64,000 bases of DNA from Escherichia coli (GTDB lineage Bacteria; Pseudomonadota; Gammaproteobacteria; Enterobacterales; Enterobacteriaceae), in the NCBI RefSeq assembly GCF_009931435.1, contig NZ_CP043414.1; one strand, written 5' to 3'. Within the stretch, counting starts at the first letter, position 1, and each line of letters starts with the position of its first letter. Shown one piece after another: positions 5,720 to 50,724 of the stretch. Under the pieces are notes generated by a model. It ran no database searches, was not told the DNA's origin, and worked only from the letters and a program-made list of their open reading frames with translations. Position numbers and translations under genes: made by a program.

Positions 5720-6068
5720 ATCTCTTTCCTTCTGAAAGTTCGTTAACAAACGAACAAAAGTTGTCACACTGAAAGATATGCAATATTCGTGCATATTTTT
5801 ATCGGCTCGGTGTAAGAAAAGAGAACTCTCTCCCGGCCAGCACTGCTCGCTATATAAAAGCATCGCAAGAATAACTTTAGCCAGGGTTTGAGACTATAGC
5901 TCGGATTAAAAAACGGTATTTAACAAATTTTTATGCGTATTTGCTCTATGTGATAAAGCCAAATCGGCACAAGAGAAGTGAAATAATCTTTAATAAAAGG
6001 TTAAAAACAGCAGATAATTTTGCAGCACGCAGTCACTGCGGCAGCGACTGCGTACTCGAAAGGAGTTA

Positions 6069-6545
6069 TCAGTGGAGGAAATAGTTTTCGGTAACGTTGT
6101 TTTGCCCTTCATCGTCAGTCGGTAACAGCAGTTGATGGGCATTAGCTTCAAGAATGACCATCGAAATCTGCTCTTCGCTCTGACGCACGAACCATGCAAA
6201 CTGCTCATAGGTTACGCCCTGCATAACGGATAAAGACTGGCAAACCACCAGCTTTGGCAGATTATCATCCTGCATATCAAGAAATGCTTTCACGGTCAGC
6301 GAACTGGCATTGATGGCGGATAAATCCGCCGCCAGCGGCAATACGGCTGAAGGTCGGACTTCCGCCATGGCAGAAAACAGGATCGTGTTATCGATCAGAT
6401 CGATTTTGGCATCAAAGACACCGTCGAAATTCTGCATATGGGGCAGATGCAGAGCCTGACAGTTATCACATTCAAAAAAACTCATCCCCAGGTCATCGAG
6501 CCATTGACGCAACGTATCCAGACCAGGAACGACCAGCGATGTCAT
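6069..6545 (-). CDS. ybjN: YbjN (putative sensory transduction regulator family)
   Basis: Trimmed to MTSLVVPGLDTLRQWLDD (158 aa); conserved position between potF and rimK. Confidence 0.85.
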   Translation of the reverse strand: MTSLVVPGLDTLRQWLDDLGMSFFECDNCQALHLPHMQNFDGVFDAKIDLIDNTILFSAMAEVRPSAVLPLAADLSAINASSLTVKAFLDMQDDNLPKLVVCQSLSVMQGVTYEQFAWFVRQSEEQISMVILEANAHQLLLPTDDEGQNNVTENYFLH

Positions 6546-6632
6546 AATTTTGTACAACCTCTTCCGATAAAAAGACCGGCACAGCTTACGCAAAAAGCGC
6601 AGGCAAAACCATGATCAGTAATGTGATTGCGA

Positions 6633-7535
6633 CTAACCACCCGTTTTCAGGCAATATTCTGTCGTGGCGTTGCGTTCGATCCAGCGGATCATTTTACTCG
6701 CGATGTCGATACCGGTGGTTTTTTCTATTCCTTCCAGCCCCGGCGACGCATTCACCTCCATCACCAATGGCCCGCGATTAGCACGCAGAATATCCACACC
6801 AGCAACGTCCAGCGCCATCGTTCGCGCGGCTTTTATCGCGATTTCACGCTCCTGTGGTGTGATACTGGCGACGCTTGCCGCGCCTCCACGATGCAAATTG
6901 GAACGAAAATCGCCCTCTTTCGCCCGCCGTTCAATCGCAGCGACCACTTCATCGCCAACAACCAGACAGCGGATATCGCACCCTTGCGCCTCTTTGATAT
7001 ATTCCTGCACCAAAATATGCGCGTTCAGACCGCGAAAGGCGTCAATCACGCTTTCCGCCGCCTGACGCGTCTCCGCCAGCACGACACCAATTCCCTGCGT
7101 ACCTTCAACCAGCTTAACCACCAGCGGCGCACCACCGACCATGTCGATTAAATCGCTGGTATCATCCGGCGAATGCGCAATGCCCGTGACAGGCAGGTCG
7201 ATGCCCTGACGCGCCAGCAGTTGCATGGAACGCAATTTGTCACGCGCCCGGGCAATGGCGACCGACTCATTGAGCGGATAGCTCCCCAGCATCTCGAACT
7301 GGCGCAGTGCCGCCGTCCCATAAAAGGTAATGGCGGTGCCAATACGCGGGATCACAGCGTCAAAATGGGGTAACTTGCGGCCTTTGTAGTGAATTGAAGA
7401 CGCCGCAGGATTTATGTTCATGTAGCAAGAAAGCGGATCAAGAATTTCAACCAGGTGACCACGCTGTATAGCGGCTTCACGCAGCCGCTTACACGAATAG
7501 AGCGTTCCATCCCGGGACAATATGGCAATTTTCAC
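6633..7535 (-). CDS. rimK: Ribosomal protein S6 glutaminyl ligase RimK (ATP-grasp)
   Basis: 300-aa [21 protein letters not shown]; ATP-grasp family features. Confidence 0.9.
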
Positions 7536-11444: not shown

Positions 11445-11523
11445 GCCACTGCTTTTCTTTGATGTCCCCATTTTGTGGAGCCCATCAACCCCGCCATTTT
11501 GGTTCAAGGTTGGTGGGTTTTTT
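11445..11523 (+). ncRNA. rybB: RybB small RNA (sigma-E-dependent, Hfq-binding regulator of outer-membrane protein mRNAs)
   Basis: gccactgcttttctttgatgtccccattttgtggagcccatcaaccccgccattttggttcaaggttggtgggttttttgtt matches the RybB sequence I recall almost base for base, including the 5' GCCACUGCUUUUCUUU seed and a terminator hairpin plus U-run; lies in the ybjL-rcdA intergenic region. Confidence 0.8.
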
Positions 11524-11542
11524 GTTATCTAAAATTTATCTA

Positions 11543-46824: not shown

Positions 46825-48060
46825 ATGGTATTAAGTAACTGTATTCAATGTCAGTCATGCAAATTTATATATAGAGTTAGGGTTGGTATTGGGTTTGATA
46901 AATACCAAAGACATTATATGGACTGTTTTGAGTGTAATATTCCTATTGTTTTTGCTATACGAACAGACCCACCAAATGCTTATCTTGAAGCGGAAGAAAA
47001 CTGCCTAATTGTTGAACATAGTACAGACCACAAGGTTGTTAACTTCCATCCGGGATGTGCTTTTAATAAAGATGAGATACATCAGTCACTGATATTCCCA
47101 TCTATTGAATTGACACAAATGATTCATAAACATATGAGGATGCCGAAAGGACAACGCCTTATAAGTGCCTCTCATCAATTTGATATTCCCAACGCCCCCT
47201 CCAAATGGAATTATTTAAAATCAATAATAAAACTTATTAATGAAGGAAAGAAAGACAAAGCTCAGAATACAGCAAAGCTTTATATGCAATCAAGAAATAA
47301 AGAGTTACCTTTGTATAATGAAGATGATAGCTATTCCTCTACATCTCTAATCTATGAGTTTTTAGATTGGCTTTTCTATCCTCGAGTACATGATATAGCC
47401 GATTCCATTAAAAAAACAATTGATGACCTTAAAGAACAAAATTTGTTGGATGATTTTTACGCTTTCTATAAAGAAAATTTAAAATCCGAAAATGAACAAA
47501 GATACATCAATATAATATCAGATTTCATGGCTCGTAGAGATCATTTCGGGCAGTTAATCTATTACGCAAGAATTAACAACGATGCAATAGACGATAAGAT
47601 AATTAGCTCTAAGAACTTCGATAATGTAAGAAATTATTATGGAGATGCTTATGAAAGTCTGACATCTAACATGACTATTTTAGCATGTATTAATAACATC
47701 GTCAGTGGAAGGGCATTCGATCAGTTCAAGCAAATGACATTGAATAAATACATAAAGGATGTAAATAAAGACAGTAAAACAAACCCATTTAAGGACAACC
47801 CTTTATTTAGCGCATTTTGTGAAGATGATTTAGAGTCAGCAATAAGAAATGGTTCTCATCATGCCTCTATATGGCATGACGGAGAGAGTATTCGATATAG
47901 AAGTGGCGGAACTGGCGCAGAAAGAGAAATAAGCTATACAAAATATATTCACCTTTGTAATAAGCTAACTCTTAAAATCGTAAGTTTGTGGTTAATTGAA
48001 CTTCATATCCAACATATTTACGAAAAAGATGATAATAGCTATGCATGGTTTCATCTTTAA
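46825..48060 (+). CDS. Hypothetical protein, 411 aa, AT-rich cargo gene with N-terminal Cys cluster (possible zinc ribbon); function unknown
   Basis: Long ORF with AAGGA RBS 8 nt upstream of ATG; sampled lines are about 28-37 percent G+C versus about 50 percent in flanking genes; N-terminus CIQCQSC...CFEC; rest rich in K/N/D/E/Y; no family recognised by eye. Confidence 0.6.
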   Translation: MVLSNCIQCQSCKFIYRVRVGIGFDKYQRHYMDCFECNIPIVFAIRTDPPNAYLEAEENCLIVEHSTDHKVVNFHPGCAFNKDEIHQSLIFPSIELTQMIHKHMRMPKGQRLISASHQFDIPNAPSKWNYLKSIIKLINEGKKDKAQNTAKLYMQSRNKELPLYNEDDSYSSTSLIYEFLDWLFYPRVHDIADSIKKTIDDLKEQNLLDDFYAFYKENLKSENEQRYINIISDFMARRDHFGQLIYYARINNDAIDDKIISSKNFDNVRNYYGDAYESLTSNMTILACINNIVSGRAFDQFKQMTLNKYIKDVNKDSKTNPFKDNPLFSAFCEDDLESAIRNGSHHASIWHDGESIRYRSGGTGAEREISYTKYIHLCNKLTLKIVSLWLIELHIQHIYEKDDNSYAWFHL

Positions 48061-48143: not shown

Positions 48144-48553
48144 TTTCAGCCGTTTATATCACTTAACGCAATTAGATCATGCAACTTTACACAATATGGT
48201 TTTTTCTATTATTTTTCAGTTGGTTGAATGGATTAGCCATCACACAACTGATCTATAAAACTGAAAAACACTGAAATTCTTTTCAATCTTTTCAGTGGCA
48301 GCTCTCCGGCAAACCGCCAACAGTGGCGCAGCCTGACGCTCACGTTTGTAGAAAAATAAAACTGAAAAATTTTATCGATCCAGAAACCGCAGGCGGGTGC
48401 GGTGTAGTGCCATTTTGGTCTGCGAAAGATTTATTTTGTCAGTGCGTAGTGCCGTCAGCGCAACGTGACAGCACAGATCCTTTTGTGGTGTTACGGGATG
48501 GTGGTCAGAGAAAAAAAGTGCTTAGAATGCTTCTGGTTGCGTGAGAATACAGG

Positions 48554-48579
48554 TATAAAAAACCCGCACTAGGCGGGTA
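48554..48579 (-). terminator. Rho-independent terminator of the 84-aa gene (minus strand)
   Basis: Plus strand reads aaaaaa-acccgc-actag-gcgggt; on the minus strand this is a perfect 6-bp GC stem followed by a T-run, directly after the ORF stop. Confidence 0.55.
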
Positions 48580-48589
48580 CTAAAGAGAG

Positions 48590-48844
48590 CTATTTCATTT
48601 CGTTAAGTGCGTACGCACCTCTATCAGTGAGTGCAAAAAAGCCATCCCTTACGCTGGGTTGAATCAACCCAAACATACGCAATTCACCCAGTATTTGTTC
48701 TGAGCGACTACCAGCACCAGAATGCTTAATTAGTGCAAATTCAGGCTGTGCTTCTTCACTGAGCAAAGTCAATATTTTGACAATGGCGTCACGTTTGCTT
48801 TCATCTGCAATGTCATGGTATGGATTGATGGAACAGGTTACCAT
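48590..48844 (-). CDS. Hypothetical small protein, 84 aa, monocistronic
   Basis: ORF MVTCSINPYHDIADESKRDAIVKILTLLSEEAQPEF... bounded by terminator-like hairpins on both sides; separate transcription unit from the tail operon. Confidence 0.45.
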   Translation of the reverse strand: MVTCSINPYHDIADESKRDAIVKILTLLSEEAQPEFALIKHSGAGSRSEQILGELRMFGLIQPSVRDGFFALTDRGAYALNEMK

Positions 48845-48984
48845 AGTGTTTTCCTTTTTTTATGAAAATCATATTTTACCATATCCCAACACGCCATATT
48901 GAAGTGCTCAATATTCACTCACCCTAAAAGGTATCTGTTGTGCAATCAGTTCCCCTACTCCCAGGTATCGCGGTTAAACAGGTA

Positions 48985-49010
48985 TCAAAAAGCCGCATTA
49001 TGCGCGGGCT
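48985..49010 (-). terminator. Candidate terminator of the prophage tail operon
   Basis: Imperfect GC hairpin (gcccgcgcataatgcggc on the minus strand) followed by a T-run, a few bases after the stop of the 567-aa gene. Confidence 0.4.
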
Positions 49011-49020
49011 GATGGGATGA

Positions 49021-50724
49021 TCAGGCGATGATTTTCTGGTACTTACTTCGGGTCTGTCCTGCTTTCTCTGCTGTCTGGGTAAATGCTCCGGCATTGGTTG
49101 GCGTACCAACACTGGGGTGCGAATGACTCGCACATTGCTGCGCCAGCTCTGCCAGTAAATCAATGGTGTCCAACATCATGGTCAGCGTGTTTACACTCTC
49201 ACTGCCGATATGGATGGTTGGCCCCATAATCTGCTGACCGCCCGATGCTACCGATTTGCGTAATGCAGTAATCTTTTCAGTCAGGCTTTCGCCAACCTCC
49301 ACGGCTACAGCACCGCCCACTTTAATGGACTGCTGTCCTGCTATGTCCGTTTCTTCGTTTCCTTCAATGCTGGCCAGCCTGTTACCTTTCACGGCCTGGC
49401 TAAAATCCCCGGCACTGACCTGCTGAATGGCTCCGGCTAGCAGGGTGGCGGTCCCCACCACAATGGTTTTATCCGTGGCTTTAACCGTGGTTTCGCGACT
49501 GACCAGATCACGTTGTTCTGTATCTGCTTTTACCGTTCGCACCATCGATGTTTCACTGATGGTCTGATCGGTCTGCCTTACCCAGTCACCCGCCAGAGTC
49601 ACCCTCTGGGATACTTCTTCCCGCTGCTGCTGCAATTGCTCACCGGGTTTAACGTCCGGCAGACTGGTGCCATCCGGTAGCGTCTGCCTGATAAAAGGTT
49701 TATCCGGTCTGCCTCCTGTGAATGCGACCTCAACCAGCGTCCCTTCTGGCGGGAACTGAAACATACCTGAATCATTCCCGGCCATTGGTACCGGCAGCGG
49801 CACCGCTGAATAAACAGGCGTCTGATTGTCCGGATTTCCGTCTGCGTCAAGCAGCTGCACGTCCACGGCGTAACGTGGCCGGAAGGGATCGGCAAAGTTA
49901 CCGCTTTTTACCGGCTCTGAATGCGCCACGACTCTGGCCATCTTTGGCAAATGAAGCCCGGATGCCAGTTCCGGGTAATGGCTTTCAATCTGCCGTTGCG
50001 CTGGTGTTTTCTGCAAAGGTTTACCCGTTGCGCGGTTTCTCGGCGTCCATGTGATCGCCATCGTGTCATTAGTCAGGTGAACTTTAGTCACGCGTTCACC
50101 GTTCATCTCCACCCCTGGCCGCATAGTCTGGATCACTGGTAATGTCACAGAGTTACCGCCAGCAGCCCCCTGGCTGAACTCTGACGGGATTTCTACTGGA
50201 CGACCGGCAAACAATGACTTTTCTGCGCCGCCGACGTAAAGCGAACCATCAGGTAACTGGTACCAGATGTAATCCTGGATACTGAACGCCCTGCCCAGAT
50301 TGTTCAGCAACTGATAACCAGTACCGTTATGGGTAAAATGTGGGATGGGGGTATCGCTGTACTGTGCATCAGGCACACTGACCGTGATCCCGCTGTTTTC
50401 TTCCAGCCAGCCCGCAATTTCACGCAAAGTCGGGTGTTGAAACGAACATGGCCACATCCTTTCAAACACACCTACCAGCTCACGAATGAATAGGCGCTGA
50501 AAACCGTTTTCAGCGGGCTGCGATCGCTCCACATACCCCGTAAACCAGCGCAAAAGCAGATCGGTATACCCCACATCCAGCCGCACCAGTTTTCCGGTGT
50601 AATCGGTTGTTGTCTCTGCGGTGATGAAGCCCCGGCCGCAGCTGTTCAGCTCCAGTACCAGGCTGACATCCACCAGGTGAACTTCATCCGTTGAAAGGTA
50701 AAGACGTTTTACTGGTTTCATCAT
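49021..50724 (-). CDS. Phage baseplate hub/spike protein (gpD/VgrG-like), 567 aa
   Basis: Last gene of the tail operon; C-terminal third is a low-complexity V/T/G/S-rich repeat region typical of beta-helical spikes; call is by architecture and context only. Confidence 0.5.
   Translation of the reverse strand: MMKPVKRLYLSTDEVHLVDVSLVLELNSCGRGFITAETTTDYTGKLVRLDVGYTDLLLRWFTGYVERSQPAENGFQRLFIRELVGVFERMWPCSFQHPTLREIAGWLEENSGITVSVPDAQYSDTPIPHFTHNGTGYQLLNNLGRAFSIQDYIWYQLPDGSLYVGGAEKSLFAGRPVEIPSEFSQGAAGGNSVTLPVIQTMRPGVEMNGERVTKVHLTNDTMAITWTPRNRATGKPLQKTPAQRQIESHYPELASGLHLPKMARVVAHSEPVKSGNFADPFRPRYAVDVQLLDADGNPDNQTPVYSAVPLPVPMAGNDSGMFQFPPEGTLVEVAFTGGRPDKPFIRQTLPDGTSLPDVKPGEQLQQQREEVSQRVTLAGDWVRQTDQTISETSMVRTVKADTEQRDLVSRETTVKATDKTIVVGTATLLAGAIQQVSAGDFSQAVKGNRLASIEGNEETDIAGQQSIKVGGAVAVEVGESLTEKITALRKSVASGGQQIMGPTIHIGSESVNTLTMMLDTIDLLAELAQQCASHSHPSVGTPTNAGAFTQTAEKAGQTRSKYQKIIA

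Follow-up and report, generated by a model that had tools for sequence, protein, structure and literature searches.

A cos-adjacent accessory cassette in an ESSI-2-type prophage of Escherichia coli encodes a predicted winged helix-turn-helix protein

Introduction

Phage morons, a concept associated with Hendrix and Juhala, are units in which a promoter, an open reading frame (ORF) and a terminator are inserted together into a phage backbone, as exemplified by old, tin and fun(Z) of phage P2, neaT of a CFT073 prophage and ctx of phiCTX. They are absent from close relatives, differ in base composition and are dispensable for lytic growth. In P2, the classical moron positions are A-Q and G-FI (PMC3573123). 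Here, we analysed a stretch of 64,000 nucleotides of Escherichia coli (assembly GCF_009931435.1, contig NZ_CP043414.1), hereafter called the window, in which an ESSI-2/HP1-type prophage of the Peduoviridae (P2 family) is integrated between mntR and mntS. At its tail end, a minus-strand gene for a protein of 84 residues makes up a moron-type accessory cassette, consisting of a predicted promoter, a ribosome-binding site, the ORF and a second terminator, that follows the late operon and lies next to the cohesive-end site (cos). The cassette resembles the morons in the respects listed above. In contrast to them, its product cannot be recognised as a protein of conversion, exclusion or toxicity, and its slot, which reaches from the last baseplate gene to cos, is neither A-Q nor G-FI.

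The second system that comes close is the cos-adjacent hotspot of P2-like and P4-like elements (2022, PMC9122126). In both cases variable accessory genes are found directly beside cos. The circular map of the ESSI-2-type prophage reads int, attP, slot 1, cos, slot 2, baseplate gene; a convergent gene for a 411-residue protein occupies slot 1 of the window and the 84-residue gene its slot 2, and it is slot 1 that in relatives harbours genes known or proposed to act in defence. However, cos is located here between the baseplate gene and attP/int (HP1-type order) and not between gpA and gpQ, and both of its flanks are variable. Moreover, the 84-residue gene is not a known defence gene (no PADLOC match) and was, within its sub-lineage, inherited vertically rather than swapped.

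Two groups of small proteins also invite comparison. The first consists of the late-gene activators P2 Ogr and P4 Delta, with which it has in common a small standalone gene behind the tail operon; separate transcription, as in that case, is predicted for the 84-residue gene as well. Its product nevertheless lacks the Cys4 zinc motif, having one cysteine that is not conserved, and is predicted to adopt another fold; in addition, the prophage has a genuine ogr/Delta gene elsewhere. The minimal dimeric winged-helix DNA-binding proteins (Sso10a and Sso10a-2, PadR subfamily 2, STIV F93 and the MarR core) have the architecture that is predicted for the 84-residue protein, but they are only 13-18% identical to the 84-residue protein, give no significant profile match with it and differ from it in that it is acidic and has no conserved basic wing tip.

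An inserted cassette between the baseplate gene and cos

The features of the cassette and its borders are as follows, in window positions.

48496-48980, minus strand: inserted accessory cassette (moron) with promoter, 84-residue ORF and terminator copy, delimited by the homology break against the empty-site prophage L007
48590-48844, minus strand: 84-residue ORF with ATG start (WP_000255618.1, a RefSeq hypothetical protein), for which a winged helix-turn-helix plus C-terminal helix is predicted
48852-48855, minus strand: Shine-Dalgarno sequence AGGA, 7 nt before the ATG, kept as (G)AGGAAA in all loci
48873-48881, minus strand: predicted extended -10 element TGGTAAAAT, read from the sequence and invariant in nine upstream regions from both clades of the family
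48993-49007, minus strand: late-operon terminator (backbone copy), a hairpin and T-run just past the stop of the 567-residue baseplate gene, found by terminator scan, with a sequence common to cassette-free relatives
48556-48578, minus strand: terminator after the 84-residue gene, hairpin (48578-48562) and T-run, supported by scan, folding energy and conservation in both clades

When the window was compared with L007, a prophage whose slot 2 is empty, homology stopped at 48495 and resumed at 48981, leaving 56 bp in L007 as against 485 bp in the window. The GC content of the inserted segment is 41.9-42.7%, compared with 53.8% in the baseplate gene and 52.4% in the tail region. In the empty-site phages (ESSI-2, L007), a single terminator separates the baseplate gene from cos. 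In the window there are two, similar to each other, which bracket the cassette and are each followed by (G/T)ATACCTGT; the sequence after the downstream copy parallels that after the single terminator of ESSI-2 and L007. The downstream terminator can therefore be seen as the ancestral copy shielding cos and the upstream one as the terminator of the late operon. The unit is thereby inserted in the backbone, absent in relatives, different in base composition and provided with a predicted terminator of its own.

The content of slot 2 varies among related elements. Across 5,426 complete E. coli genomes it was occupied by the 84-residue gene in 7 and by the gene of an unrelated 110-residue signal-peptide protein in about 13, and it was empty in about 8. 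Strain 573 / Br_190_kylling also has the identical 84-residue gene. It holds nothing in ESSI-2 and an acetyltransferase gene in phage ESSI2_ev040, which makes four slot states overall, next to more than eight cargoes in slot 1. The 110-residue protein has a clear signal peptide (MKNFIILAVGAAVSFNVFA/AE...) and is encoded at 6363-6695 (minus strand) of L005, from E. coli XYEH3934, and in about 12 other genomes; its gene has its own promoter region and a terminator resembling that of the 84-residue cassette. Since this other occupant is unrelated, position in the slot gave no clue to the function of the 84-residue protein. The ESSI2_ev phages are temperate coliphages from infant viromes that were isolated as plaque formers (PMC6969025), and because these plaque-forming relatives lack the gene, it is dispensable for phage growth.

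The 84-residue protein was searched against Pfam, PHROGs, PADLOC, NCBIfam and PDB (phmmer and profile), by tblastn in 50,697 phage records, in 5.8 billion clustered proteins and in 1.84 billion representatives, which were read exhaustively; nothing was found in these libraries beyond its own small family. One match of 548 residues (P0006) was discarded as a low-complexity repeat protein. The family comprises about 8 clusters, all of exactly 84 residues and all in enteric ESSI-2-like phages, which fall into two clades with 76-100% and 42-45% identity to the query. The gene directly follows the baseplate gene at every examined locus where the latter is intact (566/567 residues). With two clades in the same slot, it was inherited vertically within the sub-lineage and not swapped. 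It diverges faster than its structural neighbours: the 84-residue proteins are 42-44% identical in genome pairs in which the baseplate protein reaches 77% and an ORF34-like protein 70%.

The ORF is always of 84 codons, and the ratio of nonsynonymous to synonymous substitution rates (dN/dS) is 0.24-0.64 over dS values up to about 1.5-2. Such a fixed length over this distance, together with dN/dS below 1, indicates that the ORF is genuinely coding. A spurious ORF or non-functional remnant flanked by chance hairpins would be in keeping with the lack of a family match in any library and with a count of terminator-like sites that does not exceed that of shuffled sequences. We consider it extremely improbable, given eight variants of 84 codons down to 42% identity with dN/dS below 1, the conservation of the promoter box, the Shine-Dalgarno sequence and the terminators, a confident fold prediction and the intact state of the gene in three prophages decayed by deletion.

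These three derivatives (L024, L028 and L021) keep only the 3' end of the baseplate gene. They decayed independently, each with a deletion endpoint inside that 3' end, and the slot-1 cargo was kept. In L024 (GCA_017730315.1) only the 411-residue gene, cos, the 84-residue gene and 460 nt of the baseplate gene are left. L028 (GCA_047312545.1) lost a smaller segment, which extends into the tail genes from position 49210, within the 3' end of the baseplate gene; its 84-residue gene, cos and 411-residue gene are intact. In L021 (a Logan contig of SRR12284447), int-CI-cox-cII is joined directly to the final ~190 nt of the baseplate gene, after which come the 84-residue gene and cos. Retention in these remnants may point to selection acting on the genes; alternatively, it may mark an intermediate on the way to a mini-element that carries cos.

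Transcription of the cassette

The preliminary description of this DNA had reported a terminator-like hairpin with a T-run on either side of the gene (minus strand). Both were found, at 49007-48993 and 48578-48562, and both keep their position and stem in all diverged homologous loci, with variable loops; it is this conservation that makes them credible, and not the scan counts, since terminator scanning over 6 kb gave 10 sites, no excess over the 6.6 +/- 2.9 of shuffled sequences. The downstream hairpin begins 12 nt past the stop of the ORF and is the stronger one (-9.7 kcal/mol, z -2.0); in clade B its stem has an extra G:C pair, with compensatory change in both arms. In this strain the upstream hairpin has little stability (-6.7 kcal/mol, z -0.5). 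Its 3' arm has a 1-nt deletion (GC-GGC, vs GCGGGC in relatives, which read GCCCGCG...GCGGGCTTTTT) that weakens the stem and may let some late read-through enter the 84-residue gene.

A minus-strand spacer of ~110 nt separates the upstream hairpin from the TGGTAAAAT box. In nine loci, down to 42% protein identity, the late terminator stem, ATGGTAAAAT, the Shine-Dalgarno sequence and the downstream terminator are kept and the remaining spacer diverges, so that TGGTAAAAT stays invariant while its flanks change. Neither a P2-type TGT-N12-ACA late promoter nor the GTTCGG-N13-CCGAAC dyad was found upstream of the gene; the dyad is present between the scaffold and terminase genes of the prophage (O/P late-promoter region). 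From its sequence, the promoter appears to be of the housekeeping type (sigma-70, extended -10) and presumably independent of late activation. Because the late-promoter dyad is missing upstream and the -10 element is of the housekeeping type, the gene is probably transcribed alone. In line with the preliminary description, it thus looks like a transcription unit of its own bracketed by terminators, and its expression would probably start at its own promoter, both in the lysogen and immediately upon infection, instead of accompanying that of the late genes.

Two dyads were considered as operators. One, of 7 bp (ATATTGA-N5-TCAATAT) and located upstream of the promoter, was rejected because relatives do not keep it and it is found in the window alone. 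The other, AAAAT-N3-ATTTT, covers the -10/start region and is conserved; being AT-rich and short, it gives no ground for a claim. Two further ORFs were judged spurious. The first, of 73 residues on the plus strand (48323-48544), spans cos and the conserved non-coding region common to a P4-like satellite and has no Pfam match; the second, of 79 residues (48924-49163), overlaps the end of the baseplate gene.

A predicted winged-helix protein and its possible roles

AlphaFold predictions reached a mean predicted local distance difference test score (pLDDT) of 67 with an alignment of four sequences, and a pLDDT of 82.9 with a predicted template modelling score (pTM) of 0.72 when eight sequences were used. 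The predicted topology is H1 (15-30), b, H2 (35-42), H3 (45-57), b (61-63), b (69-72) and H4 (74-83), that is, a canonical winged helix-turn-helix with a C-terminal helix. In Pfam no match was obtained at E<=1 for the query, and the best among eight family members was HTH_45 (E 0.05). No sequence or profile match was found in the PDB, and a Foldseek search of viral predicted structures returned generic winged-helix matches, none at E<=0.001. The protein therefore has the predicted winged-helix fold in common with MarR, PadR and HTH_45 proteins without a significant match to these family profiles.

The profile search, which the preliminary description had proposed, likewise gave neither a regulator family nor a zinc finger. 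Its statement that the protein, with one cysteine, is not an Ogr-type zinc finger was borne out: C4 is the only cysteine and is replaced by Arg in relatives, there is no Pfam match, and the genuine ogr/Delta homologue of the prophage (WP_089708991.1) is located after the portal gene. As for its suggestion of a regulator, an antitoxin or an immunity protein, the first fits the predicted winged helix-turn-helix, and the other two, as partners of the 411-residue protein, found no support (see below).

On balance, we think it probable that the 84-residue protein is a small DNA-binding regulator of transcription, expressed independently in the lysogenic state and at an early stage of infection. It would bind DNA as a dimer, as the predicted fold suggests, and its benefit to the phage or the lysogen would not depend on the cargo across cos. 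A number of observations weigh against such a role. It is the predicted fold that points to DNA binding, and by sequence the protein is a member of no regulator family. Its net charge is -2 to -9 in seven of eight variants (+1 in the remaining one), Glu takes the place of the wing-tip Arg66 in two variants of clade B, and the clades differ in the exposed residues of H3, the putative recognition helix. At the DNA level, no convincing conserved operator was found upstream of the gene. The TGGTAAAAT promoter is a prediction from a conserved consensus match, and the consensus promoter scan did not call it, the -35 being weak or unmatched.

The same acidity, with seven of eight variants negative and values down to -9, is in keeping with the main rival explanation, in which the winged helix binds a protein and not DNA. 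The product would then be an early inhibitor, serving in anti-defence, anti-satellite activity or host take-over, encoded near the end of the virion DNA by one of the first genes to enter. The unconserved basic residue at the wing tip and recognition-helix surface fit this view, as do the faster evolution relative to the neighbouring structural genes (42-44% vs 77% for the baseplate protein) and the predicted housekeeping-type promoter. The gene is also the closest to cos on its side, ~190 bp from the end of the virion DNA, and a P4-like satellite shares only the slot-1 side of cos and the cleavage site; by analogy with cosB of lambda, the end carrying the 84-residue gene would be packaged last and injected first. 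However, this order of entry is borrowed from lambda, nearly all the strong structural neighbours among those listed are DNA binders, many genuine winged helix-turn-helix regulators are acidic overall, and the protein resembles no known anti-defence protein or PADLOC model. We therefore regard protein binding as rather unlikely. A more specific version, for which we see little likelihood, is that the cassette is a cargo-independent "first-in" gene whose acidic winged-helix product, by the same analogy, would be made before other phage products and neutralise a host or satellite factor.

The cos site between the two genes

The cos region was defined by two features.

48393-48407, no strand: cos cleavage region with the 15-nt cohesive-end sequence GCGGGTGCGGTGTAG, identified by the termini of ESSI-2, an adapter artefact in ESSI2_ev040 and its invariance
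48258-48495, no strand: conserved non-coding cos-flanking region with AAAACTGAAAAA repeats, 80-90% conserved in relatives with differing genes on either side

GCGGGTGCGGTGTAG is the terminal direct repeat at both ends of the linear record of Cronobacter phage ESSI-2 (L016). In the virome-derived ESSI2_ev040 genome (L017, NC_049393.1, 29624-29664), the Nextera adapter TCGTCGGCAGCGTCAGATGTGTATAAGAGACAG was assembled exactly into the cos spot; a physical DNA end would produce this. The adapter is as such an assembly artefact in a RefSeq reference record. In parallel, several metagenomic contigs end at GCGGGTGCGGTGTAG, and the 15-mer is invariant in every relative as well as in one P4-like satellite. 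The canonical P2/P4 cos GGCGAGGCGGGGAAAGCAC was tried as a match to the region and gave no significant similarity, so that the window has a distinct cos type.

This cos lies ~155 bp past the downstream terminator of the cassette (the ORF stop is at 48590) and separates the 84-residue gene from the 411-residue gene. Because of this, the two genes are located at opposite ends of the virion DNA and become neighbours only when the DNA is circular or integrated. The preliminary description was right to place the gene between the tail operon and the cargo gene, but it had missed cos, which is the relevant landmark rather than a prophage end.

On the slot-1 side of cos there are three copies of a AAAACTGAAAAA-type motif, two direct and one inverted (48211-48221, 48255-48268 and 48356-48369). 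These copies, which are conserved both among relatives and in the P4-like satellite, may serve as binding sites for terminase or a host factor. This satellite (L006, from E. coli 4/4, NZ_CP023826.1) carries at 6001-6165 the ESSI-2-type cos with ~135 bp of flank, and not the canonical P2/P4 cos. It encodes an Icd-like protein, a DUF927 primase, an ogr/Delta-like protein, an integrase at tRNA-Arg and a sce7725/7726 cargo. About 448 further E. coli genomes were matched in the cos-flank search, and the satellite was inspected in one example; this suggests a large class of P4-like satellites, including those of ST131-type strains, matched to ESSI-2-type helpers.

The proximity of cos raises the question of a packaging accessory factor that would bind it, in the same way as the winged-helix domains of small terminase subunits or the TubR centromere binders. 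This appears very unlikely, as ESSI-2, ESSI2_ev040, L007 and L005 share cos and the repeats without having the gene, and of these at least the ev isolates form plaques. Furthermore, the prophage encodes its own small terminase, gpM, and the P4-like satellite with the ESSI-2-type cos has no such gene.

The convergent 411-residue gene

46825-48060, plus strand: gene of the 411-residue cargo protein in slot 1 (between cos and attR), 32.6% GC

The 411-residue protein belongs to no Pfam, PHROG or PADLOC family and shows a weak N-terminal, cysteine-rich CPXCG-like match. In relatives, slot 1 is occupied by genes with an established or candidate role in defence (AbiU/AIPR, PDC-S64, a reverse transcriptase and an Abi-family protein). 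The 411-residue family is large, with at least 176 clusters in Enterobacter, Pantoea, Vibrio, Shewanella, Aeromonas, cyanobacteria and Bacteroidota. An Enterobacter homologue with 70% identity has a co-directional 257-residue gene next door, in a prophage remnant without any homologue of the 84-residue gene. In the Enterobacter cloacae complex (L031-L033), this pair of genes, the 411-residue homologue first, lies in a prophage remnant next to rpoD-mug. The 411-residue gene is a candidate one- or two-gene defence system.

According to the preliminary description, the 84-residue protein may work together with the product of the convergent 411-residue gene, as its regulator, antitoxin or immunity partner in one system. 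The two genes are indeed neighbouring and convergent in the window, the exact 411-residue protein always occurs with the 84-residue gene in the E. coli contexts examined, and the L024 remnant keeps just these genes with cos and the baseplate 3' end. Nevertheless, a single prophage lineage explains the linkage in E. coli. The assembly collection indexes the exact 84-residue protein in 1,809 blocks, as compared with 303 for the 411-residue protein, and the identical 84-residue protein is found beside at least four cargoes, namely a 345-residue protein (PADLOC PDC-S64, E 4.7e-42), AIPR/AbiU, PIN_8 and the 411-residue protein. Its variants lie beside a DUF6338 cluster, a reverse transcriptase and genes for proteins of 491, 165 and 366/395 residues. 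Conversely, the 411-residue family, from Vibrio to cyanobacteria, is far wider than the roughly eight clusters of the 84-residue family, and the Enterobacter homologue pairs with another neighbour; cos, moreover, stands between the two genes. Since the same 84-residue protein accompanies differing cargoes and the 411-residue family is far wider and occurs without it, the partnership is not supported and we consider it highly improbable. When co-occurrence was checked, no conserved association of the two genes across relatives emerged: the 84-residue gene is absent from most relatives that carry the 411-residue gene, an outcome which the preliminary description had itself named as contrary to its proposal.

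The host prophage and its surroundings

49021-50724, minus strand: baseplate/spike gene (567 residues), the last of the late tail/baseplate operon; phrog_2258 baseplate protein, E 3.5e-276

Besides phrog_2258, the baseplate protein shows weak Phage_base_V and Gp5 matches. The protein of 181 residues encoded upstream of it matches Pfam HP1_ORF34 (E 2e-53). The prophage spans from ~46.5 kb of the window to past the window end, with mntS as its far boundary on the chromosome, and its chromosomal order is tail, lysis, head, terminase, portal, ogr/Delta-family gene, replication genes, cII, cox, repressor and integrase. The closest sequenced phages are Cronobacter phage ESSI-2 (Seongnamvirus) and the Escherichia ESSI2_ev phages (Quadragintavirus). 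Rfam and transfer RNA scans of the region found no RNA gene.

The window matches NZ_CP106924.1, of E. coli MFDS1016424, at 100%. A gene of 193 residues was observed between the integrase gene and the mntS-side attachment site, outside the window (L018 14876-15457, minus strand; NZ_CP106924.1 3152875-3153456). It has no family match and may represent a third cargo position of the prophage.

In another E. coli assembly, the tail-end module (baseplate gene, 84-residue gene, cos and a 165-residue cargo) abuts the small RNA gene rybB next to ybjL and not mntR. The corresponding positions are as follows.

L011 9479-9557, minus strand (window 11448-11526, plus strand): coordinates for the observation on the rybB side

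In the same way, the module sits beside cobU/cobS/cobT in L029. With rybB/ybjL and cobU/cobS/cobT as neighbours instead of mntR, the module is associated with differing integration specificities.

Significance

Taken on its own, the 84-residue gene is one of thousands of small uncharacterised phage accessory genes, and its value lies in its resolved context. It is a real feature and a fairly ordinary phage add-on, whose product is by sequence not a MarR or PadR protein and has the fold alone in common with them. It is no longer to be presumed the partner of the 411-residue candidate defence gene, which is better considered alone or, as in Enterobacter, with a 257-residue neighbour.

Variable genes flank cos as a rule in P2 and P4, and the ESSI-2/HP1-type branch, with its cos elsewhere in the genome, follows this rule on either side of the site. 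The invariant 15-nt cos, together with the baseplate gene, provides a simple anchor for mining cargo in this lineage. If the "first-in" reading were true, the gene would be a P2-family counterpart of T7 Ocr or of the T5 pre-early genes; the target could be a defence sensor, a function of P4-like satellites or the H-NS-type silencing of the AT-rich cargo that flanks cos, and retention of the gene in L024, L028 and L021 would reflect selection for a host-beneficial activity. Whichever partner it binds, the predicted 84-residue winged-helix protein is conserved, independent of the cargo and easy to purify, and it is therefore a tractable candidate for a prophage-expressed regulator or inhibitor.

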